A stretch of DNA of 39,954 bases from a virus (Duplodnaviria; Heunggongvirae; Uroviricota; Caudoviricetes), in IMG/VR virus record IMGVR_UViG_2563366978_000009, positions 1 to 39,954 of that record; one strand, written 5' to 3'. The notes below the pieces were generated by a model that saw only the letters and a list, made by a program, of their open reading frames with translations, had not been told where the DNA came from and ran no database searches. Shown in pieces: positions 3,097-36,049 of the stretch (the first letter of the stretch is position 1; every line of letters begins with the position of its first letter). A program made the translations under genes and the position numbers.

Positions 3097-3453
3097 CGTT
3101 TATATGCATAACTACCTCCTGAACAGTAAAGCATTACGCATGATAAACCATTTATGGTTTTTTGTTACCCAATATTACCAATCCAATTCGCGATGGTCAA
3201 AACATATCCACAGCGGTAAGTTTGAGTGTTTTCATTTCCAAAACTTTATACAATAATATATGCAGTCTGTTATTTTTACGCACAATAAAAACACGATACC
3301 AGCTATTTCGCCATAAATACAATTTCCTTTAATGCTGCCAACAGTGCCTGCAAAACATATAACAGAACACATAAATAACAGGCATAATATAGATTTAATA
3401 ATCTAAGTGCATATAAATATCATTTAAGAAGTTAAGAGCATTATTATAATAAC

Positions 3454-3483
3454 AATAACCCCGCTGTTTTATTCGGGGTTATT
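3454..3483 (-). terminator. Hairpin downstream of the tailspike gene
   Basis: AATAACCCCG / CGGGGTTATT 10-bp inverted repeat with 10-nt loop, 10 nt past the tailspike stop, in AT-rich DNA. Confidence 0.45.
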
Positions 3484-3493
3484 GCATTTATTA

Positions 3494-6469
3494 TTACATT
3501 GCCATTAATATAAACATAGCCAATTCGTCATAACGAATTCCGTAGCGTCCTCCTGCTTTTTTTACAAGAATCATATCTCCTGTTTTATATTGAGAATAAA
3601 TTTTCTCACCTGTATCAGGATCTGTGCTCTCTTCAGTTATCACCTCTTCATCCCATACGTCAGGCCATTCATCGTAACACCAAAAAGCATATTGCTCCGG
3701 GTTTAAACCATGCTTTCTAAGAATATCCCCTACGGTTTGAGCGCCAACGCCAAAATGATACCTGGACGACTCAATTCCTTTGTGATTAATTGAGTCATTA
3801 AATTTAAATTTATAGATGACTGACTTTATTTCAATAGCGGCATTACGCTCTGCATTAAGAATATCATATCTTGTTTTAAGAGTTTCATCTGACGTATTGA
3901 TTGACCCGGTTCCTGCATAGATAACAGAGCATCTGTTTGATGGCTGTCCAATAGCTTTAACATTATCATCAACAGGAGCTATTTTATTAGCATCTGCCAA
4001 CCACCAGTCTGTTCCATCAGCGTGACCGATTCTTACTCTTATCCCACTTCTAATATTTAAACTTCCAGTATTGCTCTGTAAATTACAATCTCCTGACGTT
4101 GGTCCAAGCAGTACAGTTTTACCAACACCACATACTACTCTGGCATTTCCTTTTTGTGATACGAGTCTTGACTCACCTCCTGACTGCTCAGGAAGAGATT
4201 TATGGTCTATAAATGCATCGCGGGGGTTAAATACACCGTCTCCAGAATTATATCTTCCTCCTGTATAGTTGTTAAATACAGGACCCCAGTCAACGCCATT
4301 GCCTTCAGAGCACCCGACCATTCTAAGCACTCGAGTATTCCCTGCTGCATATGGTAATGAGCTTGTTGATTGCCGGGAAGCTATCATACGTGCTCCATAA
4401 CCAATAGCATTACCACCATTTATAGTTACATATGCTTGCTGGCTTTCGAAATATGTACTGTAAAAGTTCATATTTCCACAGTCATGTAGATGAATAAGAA
4501 CATCATCCCATCCCTGAATGGTTCCTGCATGTACCTGTACACCGCGAACTGGTTCCCCTGAAACCTCCATACACTCTGATGGCCGGCTGAATGGCTGAGA
4601 CAGGTATTGCGATGTGGCAAGCAGATGTGTGTGGTGATACAGGCTGGTAATGTAGCAATCGAAAAATTGCGTTCCCGCCATACCAAAGTTATCTATGTCA
4701 TTTCGCCGTATAGTAGAACCTACTGTTGCCTCAGAAGCGTTAGACACTCCAGTAAATACTAACTTATCACCGGATACGGATAATCCTGAATAAGTGAAAT
4801 TCCTGCCTCCCGATCTTAAAACCCCGGACGTTTCGAAGGTGTGGCTTGATGACCATGGGATTTCGATAGTGCTGGACGTTACCGCTGTAATTCGGAATAC
4901 ATCATGGGCGCGGATCGAAACACCCTTGAATCCCTGGAATCTACAGTGATAATAGTTTTCATCCTCGCCCTGAGCGGCCAGCGTGCCAGATACAGGAATG
5001 TTCGTTTTTAAAAGTGCCGTCTTGCGCCAGTATCCAACCACCTGCAAATTGCGGTATTCATTGCCAAAAGACGCACGTGACCAAATACCTACATCCCACT
5101 CATCGCCAAGACCGGTATTTGCAATGTCTTTATAACCATCCAGCCCATTGAAATATGGAACAATACGAAAGTTCTCAAGGCGAACACATCCTGTCTCTGG
5201 CATCAATATTGCGGCAGAGAATGGTTTAAGCGTGGCTCTTGTAGCCCCATTAGCATCACCGTTAGTAAAATCCAATAAATCATATGATGACGCAGGTGCC
5301 GTTGTTGTATACGGGTCTTCGGAAGATGGATTAGAAACCACACCACCACTAACATCCATATTAGAAACACAATCTACAGTATATTTTTTATTTCCTACAC
5401 CGTACATCAGGAATGTGGTCCCTGTGGTAATATCAGGAGCAAATGTTGCAGTATATCCAGAGACCCATTTGCCCACACCAAGACCAATTATCCCACCACC
5501 AGAAACAGGTGTTAACGTATCCGTTATTACATACGCATTATCAGTACCATAAATAACCTTTCCTGTGTTAATGGCAGCTTGCCACGCGGCCCAGTCTATT
5601 GACTGAGATAATGAGTCAACAAAAGGATATAAGGATTTTGCTTCAGAAATTGAAGAAAACCTCTCAGATAATGGATGATATTTCCCATCCCCAATTGCTC
5701 CGAATTGTTTTACATTTAAGAAAAGAGCATTGTTTTCATGCTGAGTTATAGTTACAGCCCCGGCAAATGGCTGCCTTACACCAATTAATGCATCACCTTT
5801 TCCTTCTCCTGCGCTAGATAATTGCAGAAGAACATCTGCGGCACTGCCAGAAGGCACAGGTACACCTATAGGTTTACCATTGACGATACCAATGACAGTT
5901 TCTTCCAGTAAATGAACTGGAGGAAGTGGTTCAATAAAATTATCTGGAACCCGTAATGTCCTGTTAATATTCACATTAACAATATTATCAACATAATTCT
6001 TTGTAGCTGCATCTTGAGGCTTGGAAGGATCGCGCAAATTGCGGATGTAATTATTCAAAGCATCGTAATAGTTTGCCACAAATGATGGTTTGCGCAGCGC
6101 CAGGCTAAACCAACTGCGGACTTGCTGTATCAGCATCGTCAGCTTATCTAACGCGTCTTCATGCACCTCAGCGAAAAACTTTCCCTGATTTCGCAGATCA
6201 GTTTCCTGCGTAACCGGGAGCTCTCGTGATATAGAAATCTGATAACCGTTAGCTAACGCCTTCGACAGAATTACATTACCGCCATTATATCCACCAGCCC
6301 CAGTGACAGTGTAATCAGTATCAAGAGCCAGCACAGCGATATTTTCGTCAAGGTCAACCACCTGCACTACCAGATCAGATTCCTTGAAAACCCTAAAGGT
6401 ATAAGGAAATGAAGTCGTAACGCCATTGCCTGTGTATTCGTTGTGGTCAACTTCGGTTGAGACCGTCAT
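3494..6469 (-). CDS. Tailspike / tail fibre: T7 gp17-like N-terminal adaptor, central receptor-binding region, C-terminal S74-type intramolecular chaperone
   Basis: 991 aa; GGAG RBS. N-terminus (EYTGNGVTTSFPYTF...LDTDYTV) resembles the T7 tail-fibre N-domain. C-terminal ~150 aa has the SDETLKT block, like the Ser-Lys autocleavage motif of endosialidase-type chaperone domains. Gly/Ser/Thr/Asn-rich middle. Confidence 0.75.
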   Translation of the reverse strand: MTVSTEVDHNEYTGNGVTTSFPYTFRVFKESDLVVQVVDLDENIAVLALDTDYTVTGAGGYNGGNVILSKALANGYQISISRELPVTQETDLRNQGKFFAEVHEDALDKLTMLIQQVRSWFSLALRKPSFVANYYDALNNYIRNLRDPSKPQDAATKNYVDNIVNVNINRTLRVPDNFIEPLPPVHLLEETVIGIVNGKPIGVPVPSGSAADVLLQLSSAGEGKGDALIGVRQPFAGAVTITQHENNALFLNVKQFGAIGDGKYHPLSERFSSISEAKSLYPFVDSLSQSIDWAAWQAAINTGKVIYGTDNAYVITDTLTPVSGGGIIGLGVGKWVSGYTATFAPDITTGTTFLMYGVGNKKYTVDCVSNMDVSGGVVSNPSSEDPYTTTAPASSYDLLDFTNGDANGATRATLKPFSAAILMPETGCVRLENFRIVPYFNGLDGYKDIANTGLGDEWDVGIWSRASFGNEYRNLQVVGYWRKTALLKTNIPVSGTLAAQGEDENYYHCRFQGFKGVSIRAHDVFRITAVTSSTIEIPWSSSHTFETSGVLRSGGRNFTYSGLSVSGDKLVFTGVSNASEATVGSTIRRNDIDNFGMAGTQFFDCYITSLYHHTHLLATSQYLSQPFSRPSECMEVSGEPVRGVQVHAGTIQGWDDVLIHLHDCGNMNFYSTYFESQQAYVTINGGNAIGYGARMIASRQSTSSLPYAAGNTRVLRMVGCSEGNGVDWGPVFNNYTGGRYNSGDGVFNPRDAFIDHKSLPEQSGGESRLVSQKGNARVVCGVGKTVLLGPTSGDCNLQSNTGSLNIRSGIRVRIGHADGTDWWLADANKIAPVDDNVKAIGQPSNRCSVIYAGTGSINTSDETLKTRYDILNAERNAAIEIKSVIYKFKFNDSINHKGIESSRYHFGVGAQTVGDILRKHGLNPEQYAFWCYDEWPDVWDEEVITEESTDPDTGEKIYSQYKTGDMILVKKAGGRYGIRYDELAMFILMAM

Positions 6470-6573
6470 GTTAAATCTCCAGATAGTCGCAGCACCCGTT
6501 GCGCCGCATATCTGGTTATTCTATTACCTGAAAAACCAGATATGGATGGAAAGAGTGTTAATGTGAGCAGATA

Positions 6574-6588
6574 TTACCTTTCAGGTGA
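6574..6588. promoter_or_regulatory. Operator-like palindrome TTACC-N5-GGTGA (one mismatch)
   Basis: TTACCTTTCAGGTGA in the intergenic region between the tailspike start and the LexA-boxed gene. Confidence 0.5.
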
Positions 6589-6625
6589 TTCGCAAAACGT
6601 GCTGGATAGCAAACAAATTATTTGA

Positions 6626-6645
6626 TACTGTATAAATATACAGTT
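6626..6645. promoter_or_regulatory. LexA (SOS) box
   Basis: TACTGTATAAATATACAGTT matches the CTGT-N8-ACAG consensus TACTGTATATATATACAGTA at 18 of 20 positions, about 20 nt upstream of the ATG at 6666. Confidence 0.75.
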
Positions 6646-6665
6646 ATTGCATGGAGAAGATTAAG

Positions 6666-6923
6666 ATGCAGCAGTATCACTATCCACTGGAAGACGGATT
6701 TACCGAAAGGATTCACACGCCGGGAGGCGTCAGGTCACTGGTGGAGGGATCGCATTTGATGAAATTACTCCGGGATCTCGATAAGGATGGATTTAATGTC
6801 GATGGCCCACTTGCCGAACTGACTGCACTGATTAACTACGTCACCAGCTCACAGATGTCTATGCGGGATCTGCAAACACATCTCGACTATTGTGCCGAAC
6901 AATTACGAAAACAAACCCGGTAA
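6666..6923 (+). CDS. Small antirepressor-like protein, paralog of the C-terminal domain of the AntA-type protein at 8074..8730
   Basis: Start at 6666 with GGAG RBS (ATG at 6651 lacks an RBS and abuts the LexA box). About 40 percent identity by eye to the C-terminal 75 aa of the 8074..8730 product (shared PL, IH.P.GV, LM.LL, DG..V.G..AEL, RD.QTH). Confidence 0.6.
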   Translation: MQQYHYPLEDGFTERIHTPGGVRSLVEGSHLMKLLRDLDKDGFNVDGPLAELTALINYVTSSQMSMRDLQTHLDYCAEQLRKQTR

Positions 6924-6930
6924 ATTTAAA

Positions 6931-6946
6931 GGCCGCAAGAGCGGCC
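6931..6946. terminator. Hairpin between convergent genes
   Basis: GGCCGC AAGA GCGGCC; shared by the + gene ending at 6923 and the - gene ending at 6946. Confidence 0.45.
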
Positions 6947-7674
6947 TATCGTTTCGCTTTGTGCTCATCCCAGCACGTTTTGCACCATGCCATTAAGCCG
7001 TCCGCATTTTGATTATTAGGGTAAAAGCTGGTTCGTTTTCTGCGGACATTACAAATTGGGCACCACTTCATATGGCGTGTATTCTTTGGGCCATCGAGAC
7101 ACCTTGCACACCACTTAGTCAATCCATCTGGATTTTTTGACGATTTCCTGAATTTTTCATATGGAAGGTTTATTCTGCATCGCAAGCACTGCTTGCTACC
7201 ACTTGAAACTCTGTTAGCTGATTCTTCTTTTGGCGGCGATACAGAAGGTATTCTTGCTGGCTCTGATACTGCCTGAGGTGCTTTTTTAGATGACTGAGAC
7301 GATATGTCACCACCAGGGAATCTTCCATGATATGCCGGACGCGTTGACACTCCAGGTGGAAGCTCAGCTGTAAACGGCTTTGACTGAATCAGTTGCCTCT
7401 CTTTTGCTAACTCCTGCTGTTTATAATATGTCTGGATTACCGCACTATCATAAGCAGGAGGTGCGGAAATATTAGGCGCATTACCTCCAGTTTTTTGAAA
7501 CTGAGTAGAGGTGTGTTCTATCACCTGTGTACGATTAATCGTTATCTCCCCATCTTCGGTCTTTATCGTTTTGTTATGATTAACGACCGTACGATCAGAG
7601 ATCTTAGTCTTGTTCTGGTTGATAACGTAAATAATCACCGCAACCACACCAACAACTATCCAGAAAACTTCCAT
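6946..7674 (-). CDS. Membrane-anchored protein with Pro/Ser-rich linker and C-terminal triple zinc-ribbon-like repeats
   Basis: N-terminal TM (MEVFWIVVGVVAVIIYVI); C-terminus has CLRC, DGLTKWCARC, KWCPIC, DGLMAWCKTC. No family recognised. Confidence 0.6.
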   Translation of the reverse strand: MEVFWIVVGVVAVIIYVINQNKTKISDRTVVNHNKTIKTEDGEITINRTQVIEHTSTQFQKTGGNAPNISAPPAYDSAVIQTYYKQQELAKERQLIQSKPFTAELPPGVSTRPAYHGRFPGGDISSQSSKKAPQAVSEPARIPSVSPPKEESANRVSSGSKQCLRCRINLPYEKFRKSSKNPDGLTKWCARCLDGPKNTRHMKWCPICNVRRKRTSFYPNNQNADGLMAWCKTCWDEHKAKR

Positions 7675-7694: not shown

Positions 7695-7709
7695 TTACCT
7701 TAAAGGTAA
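7695..7709. promoter_or_regulatory. Operator palindrome TTACC-N5-GGTAA (perfect)
   Basis: TTACCTTAAAGGTAA, followed by a degenerate copy cTTGCTTTCAGGTGA at 7713..7727. Confidence 0.55.
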
Positions 7710-7787
7710 TATCTTGCTTTCAGGTGATCAAGCGTTAAACCCAATAAACCAAATACGGTTGATTTTAATATTTCTTCGCGTTTATAA

Positions 7788-7802
7788 TTACCTTTGCGGT
7801 AA
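7788..7802. promoter_or_regulatory. Operator palindrome TTACC-N5-GGTAA (perfect), overlapping a TATAAT -10
   Basis: TTTATAATTACCTTTGCGGTAA; TATAAT at 7783..7788. Confidence 0.55.
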
Positions 7803-7892
7803 ATTTACATCGCACTCCTCTTGTGCCATAGTAATCGGGCACTGGCAAAATCCAGTGCCGGGATTGGTCTCCCGGATTACTAAGTGGCGCAT

Positions 7893-7915
7893 ACCACGCC
7901 AGACGTGGTTTTTTT
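7893..7915 (+). terminator. Intrinsic terminator or attenuator inside the long leader of the AntA-type gene
   Basis: ACCACG CCAGA CGTGGT followed by seven T, preceded by another 8-bp hairpin at 7837..7860, about 160 nt upstream of the ATG at 8074. Confidence 0.5.
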
Positions 7916-8073
7916 ATGCGTATAGCACAGTCATGCCAGAATTATGGTGGGCTGAATGGGGGTCCGAAAGGACGCCGGTACCACTTAGGCCGGTAAGACC
8001 AACTCCGTTCAGTTCACCACCATCTGATTGGTCTCAGCGGTGGTGATGTAATTCGCTAAGTGGAGACGCCATC

Positions 8074-8730
8074 ATGAACGCTCAACTCATCCCCGTATTC
8101 AACGGCACTATATCTAACGAAACAGCCCTACTTTGTAATGCCCGCGATCTGCACGCTTTTTTAGGTGTTAAAAAGGTGTTTGCAGCATGGATTACAAATC
8201 GCATATCAGAATACGAATTCATTGAAAATCAAGACTATATTTTGCTTTCCAATTTGGGAAAGCAAACATCTGGTAGAGGCGGCCACAACCGCAAAGAGTA
8301 CCACCTCACCCTTGATACAGCCAAAGAGCTGGCGATGGTCGAGCGTAACGAAAAAGGTCGCCAGGTGCGACGCTACTTCATTGAATGCGAGAAACGTTTA
8401 AGACAACAAGAAACAAAAGTGGAGAAGGTCTTGTCAGGCTTCATGCCCGCCATTATGGAGGCGATCAAGCTGGAAGACAAAAAAGAATACAGCGCCCCAC
8501 TGAAGCCCGGCTACCGCAGTCTGATTCATTCTCCGTCTGGTGTTCTCGGCCTGACGGAGAACTCACTGCTGATGAATCTGCTGAACCAGTTACAGGACGA
8601 CGGGCACGACGTATCGGGCGCGGCGGCGGAGCTGACCACCATGTTCTGCTACATCGTCGGTGTGAGCAAATGCCTGCGTGATATCCAGACCCACGCGGAG
8701 TACATCAACGACAAGGCAGGGTTCTTCTGA
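8074..8730 (+). CDS. Antirepressor, AntA-type N-terminal domain
   Basis: 218 aa; N-terminal block LH.FLGV..F..W...R...YEF.E..DY...LT.D.AKELAM.ERNEKG...R.YFIECE as recalled for AntA/AntB; GGAG RBS; C-terminal domain paralogous to 6666..6923. Confidence 0.65.
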
Positions 8731-8801: not shown

Positions 8802-8816
8802 TTACCTCAAGGGTAA
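8802..8816. promoter_or_regulatory. Operator palindrome TTACC-N5-GGTAA (perfect)
   Basis: TTACCTCAAGGGTAA, about 60 nt upstream of the small ORF at 8877. Confidence 0.55.
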
Positions 8817-8876: not shown

Positions 8877-9056
8877 ATGCGAAACGAAAAATTGCAGATG
8901 CGTAGAGCGCAAGCTGCCGCAAGACGTTCTTTCAATGGAAGCGTAGAGTACGTAAAAGTTACTATGACAAAAGATCACGCAAGTCGCGTATCCCGCGCTT
9001 TCTTTGATTCTCGTAACAATAAGGAAAATTATGAGTTCGTCTGCGTCGCAGAATGA
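8877..9056 (+). CDS. Small basic ORF (59 aa) overlapping the YafO-like gene start; candidate antitoxin
   Basis: GAGG RBS 7 nt upstream; below the 60-aa track cutoff; 26-nt overlap with the next gene in another frame. No family recognised. Confidence 0.3.
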   Translation: MRNEKLQMRRAQAAARRSFNGSVEYVKVTMTKDHASRVSRAFFDSRNNKENYEFVCVAE

Positions 9057-9576
9057 TAAAAATCAAATTGTCAGATATAAGGGTCGAGTGTTGCATACGC
9101 AAAATTTCTCGGCCCTTTGTGCATCTGATCTTGAGCTGAAGAAAGTATCTGATGCCTTTACCCAGTATTGGAAAACGGGATACCATCCATCTCTTGGTAA
9201 AGATGCTGCATTTGCTCGTCCGACAGAAATGCTTAAACTAAATGTCAGGCATACTCATGTCGATAACCAAGACTATATTCCAGAAGATAGTGATAAAAAA
9301 CACACTGGTAAAAAATCATCTTGGGATGCATGGAAAAATATAGCGTCTGTACAAGTAAAATGCATACCAACAAGTGATTGCTTTTTAGTTTATTCGGTAA
9401 ATCACAATCGTGATGCGCTGGTTATGTTTTTTGTTGACGCAGATGCTCACAACATAACTGAGCAAGAAGAGTTTAAAGAGGAAGCAATCACTATCAGTTA
9501 TCAATTCTTTGAGAAAACAAAAACAGAACCAATGCCTTTAGAAGAAGATCTTTTTTCTGATAAATGGAAGGAATAG
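9031..9576 (+). CDS. YafO-family toxin-like protein
   Basis: ATG at 9031 with AAGGA RBS (track ORF starts at an upstream TTG). Blocks SDAFTQYWKTG, LGKDAAFA, VRHTHVDNQDYIP, CFLVYSVNHNRDALVMFFVDA parallel YafO as recalled (FISYKRDG, FGRDALY, VAHIHLANENNPFP, AHLVYCQGAFDEQAWLLIAIL). Low GC. Confidence 0.5.
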   Translation: MSSSASQNDKNQIVRYKGRVLHTQNFSALCASDLELKKVSDAFTQYWKTGYHPSLGKDAAFARPTEMLKLNVRHTHVDNQDYIPEDSDKKHTGKKSSWDAWKNIASVQVKCIPTSDCFLVYSVNHNRDALVMFFVDADAHNITEQEEFKEEAITISYQFFEKTKTEPMPLEEDLFSDKWKE

Positions 9577-26118: not shown

Positions 26119-26155
26119 TTGACATTTAACGCACAAATTATTACCTTTCAGGTAA
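26119..26155. promoter_or_regulatory. TTGACA -35 element followed by operator palindrome TTACC-N5-GGTAA (perfect, 26141..26155)
   Basis: TTGACA at 26119..26124; TTACCTTTCAGGTAA 17 nt downstream; candidate promoter for the plus-strand tRNA island. No clear -10. Confidence 0.45.
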
Positions 26156-26477: not shown

Positions 26478-26554
26478 GTGGCATTAGCTCAGTTGGACAG
26501 AGCAACCGCCTTCTAAGCGGTTGGTCGCAGGTTCGAATCCTGCATGCCACGCCA
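26478..26554 (+). tRNA. tRNA-Arg (anticodon UCU), phage-encoded
   Basis: Hand-folded cloverleaf: acceptor GUGGCAU/AUGCCAC, D-arm GCUC-AGUUGGACA-GAGC, anticodon stem ACCGC/GCGGU with loop CUUCUAA, T-arm GCAGG-UUCGAAU-CCUGC, discriminator G, encoded CCA. Confidence 0.9.
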
Positions 26555-35079: not shown

Positions 35080-35310
35080 TCATGAGTAGAAGAAGTATGC
35101 CAGTTCTGCTTTTGAGCGCAGCCATTGTCTTGATTTACAGGCTTTAAAAAGCCCATCCATCAATACCTTACCTGGCATTTTGCGCTTACCTGTTAAGTGA
35201 GTCTGGATATAGTGACTCGTCGTTCCGGCTTCCTGTGCGAAGGCTTCACGCTCATCCGGAGTAAGTGCAAGCCAGTGCTTTTTGAAATCGAAATGTCCGT
35301 TATCGCTCAT
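35080..35310 (-). CDS. Cro-like small regulator
   Basis: 76 aa, divergent from the repressor across a three-operator region; candidate helix-turn-helix at TPDEREAFAQEAGTTSHYIQTHLTG. Confidence 0.55.
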   Translation of the reverse strand: MSDNGHFDFKKHWLALTPDEREAFAQEAGTTSHYIQTHLTGKRKMPGKVLMDGLFKACKSRQWLRSKAELAYFFYS

Positions 35311-35346: not shown

Positions 35347-35361
35347 TCACCTATAAGGTAA
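35347..35361. promoter_or_regulatory. Operator copy 1 of the divergent immunity region (TCACC-N5-GGTAA)
   Basis: TCACCTATAAGGTAA. Confidence 0.55.
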
Positions 35362-35377
35362 CAAAAATCAAGGATAG

Positions 35378-35392
35378 TTACCCATGAGGTGC
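35378..35392. promoter_or_regulatory. Operator copy 2 of the immunity region (TTACC-N5-GGTGC, degenerate)
   Basis: TTACCCATGAGGTGC. Confidence 0.4.
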
Positions 35393-35394
35393 AT

Positions 35395-35409
35395 TTACCT
35401 GTTGGGTAA
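35395..35409. promoter_or_regulatory. Operator copy 3 of the immunity region (TTACC-N5-GGTAA, perfect)
   Basis: TTACCTGTTGGGTAA; the three copies have centres 31 and 17 bp apart. Confidence 0.55.
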
Positions 35410-35464: not shown

Positions 35465-36049
35465 ATGAAAAGTATCCAGGACGTCCGCAGGCAAAATCTC
35501 AACGACTTGATCGACCGTGAATTCAATGGTGTTCAGACGCGGATGGCAGAAAAACTTGGAACTCAGGCAAATCTGGTAAACCGCTGGGCTCTTGGCAAGA
35601 AGGTTATCGGCGACCAGGTTGCGCGAAAAATTGAAGCTGCCGCCAATAAACCCCGTAACTGGCTTGATATCGATCGCTCGCTTTCTCAGGAAGGTTTTCA
35701 GCCTGTCGGCCCGAGTGATATAGGTCAGCTGGCTGCTCACAACCTGGAACGCTGGATGAGCGAAAGCCGCGACCTTTCAACGCAGGGAAAACTACACCGC
35801 GCATCCGGCGTCGCCCAGGTGACAATCAGCCGCCTGTTAAACAATGAGGTCAGCGTTTCCATTTCCACCCTGGAGAATGTTGCATCCGCATTTGGGCGTC
35901 ACGGATATGAATTACTGATTCACCCGCACGACCCCGCGACTATCAACTATGACCGCTCGCGCTACGCATTGTTACCTGAAACAGAGAAGGCAAAGATCGA
36001 AAGTTACATTGAATTTGTCATCAACCAGAACGAAAAAAACAAACAATAA
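35465..36049 (+). CDS. Prophage repressor-like protein with two tandem HTH (XRE-type) domains and no S24 peptidase domain
   Basis: 194 aa; HTH-like segments at about aa 20-45 and 120-150; no Ser/Lys autocleavage domain; operators on both sides. Confidence 0.6.
   Translation: MKSIQDVRRQNLNDLIDREFNGVQTRMAEKLGTQANLVNRWALGKKVIGDQVARKIEAAANKPRNWLDIDRSLSQEGFQPVGPSDIGQLAAHNLERWMSESRDLSTQGKLHRASGVAQVTISRLLNNEVSVSISTLENVASAFGRHGYELLIHPHDPATINYDRSRYALLPETEKAKIESYIEFVINQNEKNKQ

Follow-up and report, generated by a model that had tools for sequence, protein, structure and literature searches.

A phiV10/epsilon15-like prophage of Escherichia coli very likely carries the LexA-controlled antirepression switch of phage SPC32H

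Here we consider the lysogeny switch of a tailed phage represented by the IMG/VR record IMGVR_UViG_2563366978_000009, of which the whole stretch of 39,954 nucleotides (hereafter, the window) was analysed. In this stretch, a near-consensus LexA (SOS) box precedes a small gene, ant, and a gene located ~29 kb away, rep, encodes a repressor that lacks a peptidase domain. Our conclusion is that the window is, very likely, an E. coli prophage of the phiV10/epsilon15-like kind (genus Uetakevirus) that carries an antirepression switch of the SPC32H type; in a megablast search, it groups with the epsilon15/phiV10-like podoviruses of this genus and with E. coli prophages of that kind. The Ant protein, a Rep protein without an S24 domain, the box and the synteny known from SPC32H are all found in the window, so that the preliminary description of this DNA, which had proposed LexA-controlled antirepression of a repressor devoid of a cleavage domain, was correct in its observation and is supported in its interpretation, neither of which is, however, new: the mechanism has already been published for SPC32H, a sister phage. 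The elements on which the argument depends are the following.

6574..6588, no strand: Rep-operator-like palindrome TTACCTTTCAGGTGA, placed 38 bp ahead of the LexA box
6603..6608, plus strand: putative -35 hexamer of ant, TGGATA, within the block GCTGGATAG that is invariant in the six phages aligned below
6623..6631, plus strand: putative extended -10 element of ant, TGnTACTGT, found in all six of these phages
6626..6645, no strand: LexA (SOS) box TACTGTATAAATATACAGTT, two mismatches from the consensus TACTGTATATATATACAGTA
6666..6923, plus strand: ant, small antirepressor of 85 aa, the ortholog of SPC32H Ant (Protein Data Bank chain 5D50_E, 87% identity; phrog_450)
35465..36049, plus strand: rep, repressor of 194 aa without an S24 domain (5D50_A), sharing 100% identity with its counterparts in phiV10 and vB_EcoP_ZX5

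A search of the Protein Data Bank sequences matches the small protein to chain E, 'Anti-repressor protein', of entry 5D50 (E=1.4e-46), which is the crystallised Rep-Ant complex of Salmonella phage SPC32H; the identity to SPC32H Ant extends over 72 of 83 residues. Entry 5D4Z belongs to the same Ant-Rep-LexA system of this phage, for which the references are Kim and Ryu 2013 (J Virol 87:11775) and Kim et al. 2016 (PNAS 113:E2480). In the GenBank record of SPC32H (KC911856), genes named ant and rep are found at syntenic positions. The product of the window gene consists of 85 residues (ATG at 6666, stop codon at 6921..6923), and the length of 86 given previously is the number of codons with the stop counted. 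Another ATG, at 6651, is in frame in the window but out of frame in SPC32H and epsilon15; therefore, 6666 is the start of ant, with GGAG ahead of it at 6653..6656. The paralogy proposed earlier between the small protein and the C-terminal domain of a larger antirepressor encoded at 8074..8730 is borne out by pairwise alignment, in which residues 2-75 of the former match residues 137-210 of the latter with 43% identity (E=1e-16); apart from these two, no Ant-like domain was found in the window. That the small protein represents a minimal repressor-binding module, as had been suggested, is plausible; this domain exists both as a stand-alone protein and at the C-terminal end of AntA, Bro-N, Rha and ORF6N proteins.

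Could the small protein be, instead, an SOS-induced accessory product, DinI-like or a moron, that is not an antirepressor at all and resembles the AntA protein only incidentally? The databases leave some room for such a reading: the protein belongs to no Pfam family, its PHROG matches are confined to phrog_450, phrog_15539 and phrog_1760, the first of which is labelled 'unknown function', and the gene is annotated as 'hypothetical protein' in all E. coli and phiV10-type records examined. Nevertheless, 87% identity to an anti-repressor that has been crystallised with a phage repressor, together with strict co-occurrence with Rep-family repressors (among 50,697 phage records, homologs of Ant and of Rep turn up in practically one and the same set of ~35), makes this reading highly improbable. 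The one Pfam match of the small protein at E<=0.1, DUF724, is sub-threshold and was taken as noise.

The presumed target of the antirepressor is no less recognisable. The product of rep matches chain A of 5D50, 'Repressor', across residues 1-190 (E=4e-42) and is homologous to SPC32H Rep over the full length, at 42% identity. The preliminary description credited this protein with two helix-turn-helix domains: one of these is matched by HTH_3 at residues 106-147 (E=1e-9), whereas the other, at residues 21-61, is a sub-threshold match (YdaS_toxin, which scores 21 bits where the cutoff is 30), so that the profiles bear out this claim only in part, although the whole protein aligns with the crystallised SPC32H Rep. 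A peptidase domain in the repressor had been named beforehand as the finding that would speak against the proposal; the profile search gave no Peptidase_S24 match at E<=0.1, in agreement with the original claim, and no S24 domain was detected by Pfam in the nine open reading frames (ORFs) neighbouring rep. Likewise, six-frame tblastn of the window with E. coli LexA returned no match.

The third component, the LexA box, is the sole site in the window with three or fewer mismatches to the E. coli LexA consensus, and none of 100 shuffled sequences yielded any such site. With two mismatches and a distance of 20 bp to the ATG, the box thus stands up as the near-consensus site that had been reported just upstream of the small ORF. 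The looser pattern CTGT-N8-ACAG has three occurrences in the window, compared to 0.63 expected; the two outside the box were rejected as SOS boxes, being located inside structural genes, with GC-rich spacers and without an AT-rich core, and a search for further SOS boxes across the window found none. We aligned the regions upstream of ant from six phages, namely, the window, phiV10, TL-2011b, SPC32H, SPC32N and epsilon15. The SOS box occupies identical alignment columns in all six, ~20 bp ahead of the start codon, and in SPC32H, the genome of which contains a single SOS box, this distance is, as in the window, 20 bp. As judged from this base-for-base alignment, the SOS box of the window is orthologous to the ant operator of SPC32H. 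The only change between SPC32N and SPC32H in this region is ACAG>AAAG in the right half-site of the box. Kim and Ryu (2013) are reported to have described a single-base change in the consensus of the LexA site that rendered Ant constitutive and SPC32N lytic. Beyond this genus, seven prophages of other genera carry the box at the same position, five with a perfect CTGT-N8-ACAG (two from Citrobacter and one each from Pseudocitrobacter, Scandinavium and Buttiauxella) and two, from Superficieibacter and Klebsiella, with an ATGT variant. One further locus, L015 from a Limisphaera metagenome-assembled genome, was discarded as a spurious weak match without a box.

The box is located in a 196-bp intergenic region (6470..6665) that ant shares with a divergent gene.

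3494..6469, minus strand: tailspike gene, 991 aa

Given that a palindrome has no orientation, LexA bound in this shared region might control the tailspike gene and not ant. The geometry argues otherwise, the box being 20 bp from the start of ant and 157 bp from that of the tailspike gene, and so does the comparative evidence, with the distance between the box and ant remaining fixed across phages that have unrelated tailspikes; in SPC32N, moreover, the mutated box is reported to give constitutive Ant. We consider control of the tailspike gene by this box to be most improbable. The tailspike gene itself is a mosaic. Whereas the ant region is common to related E. coli prophages, their tailspikes diverge past the first ~120 bp of the gene, the unrelated versions being of the glycosyl hydrolase 28, SGNH hydrolase or endosialidase-like types.

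The conserved positions upstream of ant also suggest where its promoter could be. The putative -35 and extended -10 elements are separated by 17 nt, and the putative -10 overlaps the left half of the box. If so, LexA bound to the box would cover the -10 hexamer and the transcription start of ant, an overlap that we infer from the conservation of both elements. Downstream, the gene is followed by a potential terminator.

6930..6947, no strand: GC-rich terminator-like hairpin between ant and the convergent gene 6946..7674 (minus strand)

The stem of this hairpin has 7 base pairs, of which 6 are GC, and there is a T-run on the minus strand (-15.5 kcal/mol, z=-2.4), and the epsilon15 record has a terminator annotated at the equivalent place after ant.

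The working of the switch can be envisaged by reference to SPC32H. In secondary sources, the DNA-binding form of SPC32H Rep is described as a tetramer, which is broken up by an Ant tetramer that binds two Rep dimers (PMC9638917), and the C-terminal tetramerisation domain of Rep doubles as the Ant-binding domain (PMC9986798). Orthology of Ant, Rep and the box permits the same mechanism to be assigned to the window with high confidence. In the lysogen, host LexA sitting on the box, which overlaps the presumed ant promoter, would keep ant silent, and Rep would hold the lytic promoters off through operators of the form TTACCT-N3-AGGTAA. Upon DNA damage, RecA-stimulated self-cleavage of LexA would allow transcription of ant, whereupon the 85-aa Ant would bind Rep and disassemble its DNA-binding tetramer, as in SPC32H, and the prophage would be induced without any cleavage of the repressor. 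The second antirepressor, 8074..8730, would be gated apart from this chain of events, by Rep-operator-like sites on its promoter and by a target of the antisense RNA C4 that covers its ribosome-binding site, with the small RNA isrK, located upstream, carrying decoy copies of the C4 targets.

Several observations weigh against this reconstruction. A consensus promoter scan called no promoter for ant, the assignment of its elements coming from conservation across phages. The Rep-operator-like site at 6574..6588 is located upstream of ant, and no role is assigned to it in the proposed mechanism. Finally, Rep of the window shares just 42% identity with its SPC32H counterpart, compared to 87% for Ant, so that the binding of this Ant to this Rep is extrapolated from SPC32H. 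The gap is curious in its own right, in that Ant is far more conserved than its presumed target; this suggests either a conserved Ant-binding surface on Rep, or possible cross-reactivity among heteroimmune phages, or else constraints imposed by the self-assembly of Ant.

The palindrome upstream of ant belongs to a larger set. The motif TTACCT-N3-AGGTAA, with two or fewer mismatches allowed, is found at 16 sites in the window against 0.95 expected and at 18 sites in SPC32H against 0.81 expected. Sites of this kind (15-mers) start at 6574, 7695, 7788, 8802, 26141, 26758, 33002, 33064, 35010, 35347, 35395, 36107 and 36169; they are intergenic and frequently paired, 48-93 bp apart, with 36107 and 36169 downstream of rep and 7695, 7788 and 8802 around the AntA gene. 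Those that flank rep on the other side are located between rep and a divergent small regulator.

35347..35409, no strand: operator-like sites that separate rep from cro, at 35347..35361 and 35395..35409, with a third, weaker site at ~35378
35080..35310, minus strand: Cro-like small regulator, divergent from rep (phrog_35, transcriptional repressor, E=9e-13)

The Cro-like protein has no Pfam match. In SPC32H, similarly, three such sites are located in the rep-cro interval, and a single one precedes ant. The first base of the latter site in the window, 6574, is also the coordinate at which the preliminary description began; most related loci retain the palindrome ahead of ant, roughly at -91 to -97, and the equivalent site of epsilon15 (AY150271) is annotated as 'protein_bind: repressor, lysogeny'. 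The palindromes are very probably operators of Rep and/or Cro. The same operator consensus is common to phages with Reps that are just 42% identical.

Downstream of ant, the window contains the second antirepressor gene, which is preceded by a complex leader.

7695..7709, no strand: perfect Rep-operator-like palindrome TTACCTTAAAGGTAA in a divergent intergenic region, conserved in TL-2011b
7759..7788, plus strand: promoter-like TTGATT-18-TATAAT for an isrK-C4-antA transcript (consensus match only, 10/12)
7788..7802, no strand: Rep-operator-like palindrome TTACCTTTGCGGTAA, abutting the -10 hexamer of the promoter-like site
7839..7915, plus strand: isrK-family small RNA with an intrinsic terminator (Rfam RF01394, 67.7 bits against a gathering score of 50)
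7940..8024, plus strand: C4 antisense RNA (Rfam RF01695, 61.2 bits against a gathering score of 45)
8026..8063, plus strand: C4 target sites a2, GATTGGTCTC (8026..8035), and b2, CTAAGTGG (8056..8063)
8074..8730, plus strand: antirepressor of 218 aa with an AntA N-terminus and an Ant-like C-terminus, residues 137-213 (Pfam, 5D50_E, phrog_377)

In the larger protein, Pfam places AntA at residues 22-92 (E=4e-26), the Ant-like domain matches 5D50_E with E=8e-14, and phrog_377, 'anti-repressor Ant', covers its full length. The C4 RNA has a stable predicted fold (-41.2 kcal/mol, z=-5.5), with a loop at 7981..7988, CCACTTAG, complementary to the b sites, and the heptamer AGACCAA at 7996..8002 complementary to the a sites. 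These targets are exact direct repeats: GATTGGTCTC is found at 7862 and 8026, and CTAAGTGG at 7880 and 8056, such that isrK carries one copy of each, a1 (7862..7871) and b1 (7880..7887), and b2 overlaps the GGAG Shine-Dalgarno sequence before the ATG of the AntA gene at 8074. The Rfam c4-a1b1 model also matches, at 7826..7878, with 39.9 bits, which is below its gathering score. A 37-codon ORF (7933..8046) that overlaps C4 may be the counterpart of Gifsy-1 orf45. The AntA gene has no LexA box in the scan of the whole window, and the operator-like palindromes at its promoter, together with the C4 target over its ribosome-binding site, suggest that control of the large antirepressor is probably exerted through Rep and an antisense RNA rather than through LexA.

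This architecture recurs among the relatives of the window: the isrK/C4 leader precedes a large antirepressor also in phiV10, TL-2011b and another E. coli prophage and, likewise, in prophages of Citrobacter werkmanii, Superficieibacter, Scandinavium and Klebsiella pneumoniae. SPC32H and epsilon15 lack the leader, and tblastn against these two genomes detected the small ant only and no fused gene. Might the AntA-Ant fusion be the main inducer in phiV10-type phages, with the small LexA-controlled Ant being auxiliary or redundant? Conservation of the fusion and of the isrK/C4 cassette beside ant in several genera lends some credit to this possibility, and so does phage ZX5, which has the same Rep and in which lysogens fell ~1000-fold, from 10^9 to 10^6, when ORF4, its Bro-N form of the fusion, was overexpressed (PMC9782041). 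We nonetheless regard this possibility as unlikely: the fusion has no SOS box and is placed behind two negative controls, SPC32H and epsilon15 carry ant and are entirely without the fusion, the fusion of phiV10 is split into two ORFs, and the universally conserved part of the system is the small Ant with its box. The split gene of phiV10 (3427..4106 of locus L001) is a Bro-N antirepressor represented by p23 and p22, with the Ant-like domain interrupted after ~35 residues, as would be expected of a frameshifted copy that is probably inactive.

As for the distribution of the Ant-like domain, the 120 matches listed by a word-indexed homology search were all close stand-alone orthologs, and it took an exhaustive profile search, covering 1.84 billion representatives, to reveal fusions. 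Even so, the relatives number only 60, mostly stand-alone proteins of 81-130 aa, with several constituting the C-termini of longer proteins that have AntA, Bro-N, Phage_pRha or ORF6N domains at their N-termini. The swap of N-termini is evident within the genus: the Bro-N protein of TL-2011b and the AntA protein of the window share ~95% identity over the last ~90 residues, and their N-termini are unrelated; ZX5 ORF4 is a further Bro-N protein, with a C-domain 93% identical to that of the window, in a phage the Rep of which is 100% identical. The 2022 report on ZX5 deals with the large Bro-N antirepressor only and mentions neither LexA nor SPC32H (PMC9782041). In the collection of 50,697 phage records, all those with the domain at two or more places are among the carriers of the small ant, which fits a shared target, Rep. 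TL-2011b even has a third gene with an Ant-like C-terminal domain (5642..6586 of locus L002, minus strand), 91% identical to the fused domain of the window; the gene adjoins an Rfam match to the sar RNA, the antisense RNA of P22 immI (6588..6655, plus strand), so that the same effector domain would come under yet another RNA control. That the Ant-like domain appears to be a portable C-terminal module is, in our opinion, a modestly new point.

The combination of an SPC32H-type effector domain with immI-type RNA control in the adjacent second antirepressor is the only mildly new element of the present analysis. It suggests, for phiV10-type and related prophages, an antirepression circuit with two tiers that would both rely on one portable Rep-binding domain; we offer this circuit tentatively, as a possibility for which the odds are not favourable. 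Under this scenario, the SOS-gated stand-alone Ant would fire first, and the resulting loss of Rep would open the operator-flanked promoter of isrK-C4-antA; IsrK, with its a1/b1 decoys, would then titrate C4, and the larger antirepressor, having the same effector domain, would either make the decision final or act in trans on other prophages of the Rep type in the same cell. The Ant-like domain would be a repressor-specific cartridge, exchanged among AntA, Bro-N, Rha and ORF6N heads and subject to differing RNA controls, such as C4 in the window and a sar-like RNA in TL-2011b.

As for the genomic surroundings, ant is located, in the epsilon15-like context, between the tailspike and the injection-protein genes, outside the immunity region, and the window has extra genes inserted after ant. 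One of these, 6946..7674 (minus strand), stands between ant and the isrK/C4 cassette and encodes a 242-aa protein (phrog_6762) with C-terminal CxxC repeats and weak zinc-ribbon matches of the endonuclease VII, Stc1 and Lar-like kinds; the loci of Citrobacter, Superficieibacter and Scandinavium lack this gene and have isrK directly after ant. The gene at 9004..9576 (plus strand) is preceded by the operator-like palindrome at 8802 and encodes a YafO-family toxin-like protein (Pfam YafO_toxin, E=9e-6), for which the RefSeq name is that of a type II toxin-antitoxin system YafO-family toxin. Farther along the prophage, a tRNA-Arg gene with the anticodon tct (26478..26554, plus strand) is located between the operator-like palindromes at 26141 and 26758; SPC32H, likewise, has a tRNA-Arg.

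The practical value of these findings is in annotation. Proteins identical to those described here are already in public databases, and what is filled is a gap rather than a discovery made. DNA matching the ant region is present in ~870 of 5,426 complete E. coli genomes; therefore, the SOS-inducibility of these prophages becomes predictable from the box. A small and testable addition is that the Ant fold recurs in larger, RNA-gated antirepressors, where it serves as a C-terminal cartridge.

Among the known systems, SPC32H is the closest. The window belongs to the same genus, its ant is placed between the tailspike and injection-protein genes on the opposite strand, with the orthologous box at the same distance from the start, Ant is nearly the same protein, and Rep is a full-length homolog, also without S24, that appears to recognise the same operator consensus. 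The window differs from SPC32H in having another allele of Rep, the one of phiV10, and ~3.8 kb of extra genes after ant, including the second antirepressor that SPC32H lacks. In a broader sense, the system resembles 186 Tum, GfoA and GfhA of Gifsy-1/Gifsy-3 and AntC of N15, all of these being LexA-repressed genes outside the immunity region that target a non-cleavable repressor; according to a review that cites Kim and Ryu 2013, SOS induction leads to LexA cleavage and then to antirepressor synthesis, with SPC32H listed together with 186 and the Gifsy phages (PMC7380047). Those phages, unlike the podovirus of the window, belong to the Myo- and Siphoviridae. The preliminary description compared the window to the Gifsy phages and to 186 Tum, and the comparison holds for the functional logic but not for the sequence family, which is that of SPC32H Ant: neither Pfam (E<=0.1) nor PHROG linked the small protein to a Tum/DinI-like or a Gifsy family, no direct pairwise comparison with Tum having been made.

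The second antirepressor has a different set of counterparts. The arrangement is that of the immI region of P1/P7 (c4 - icd - ant) and also resembles the isrK-orf45-anrP region of Gifsy-1 (PMC4825925): matches to isrK and C4 directly precede the gene, and duplicated a and b sites are complementary to C4, with one of them over the ribosome-binding site and the antirepressor gene downstream. It departs from both P1 immI and Gifsy-1 in that its effector C-domain is SPC32H-Ant-like, its promoter is accompanied by Rep-operator-like palindromes, and no separate icd-like gene is evident beyond the 37-codon ORF that overlaps C4. ORF4 of ZX5 and the 'putative anti-repressor' of TL-2011b share with it the C-terminal ~90 aa (93% identity), an identical Rep and the same isrK/C4 leader, the difference being in the N-terminus, which is Bro-N there and AntA in the window. 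In its general design, a KilA-N-like AntA domain at the N-terminus joined to a distinct C-terminal effector domain, the 8074..8730 protein is akin to the modular antirepressors of the AntA/Bro-N type.

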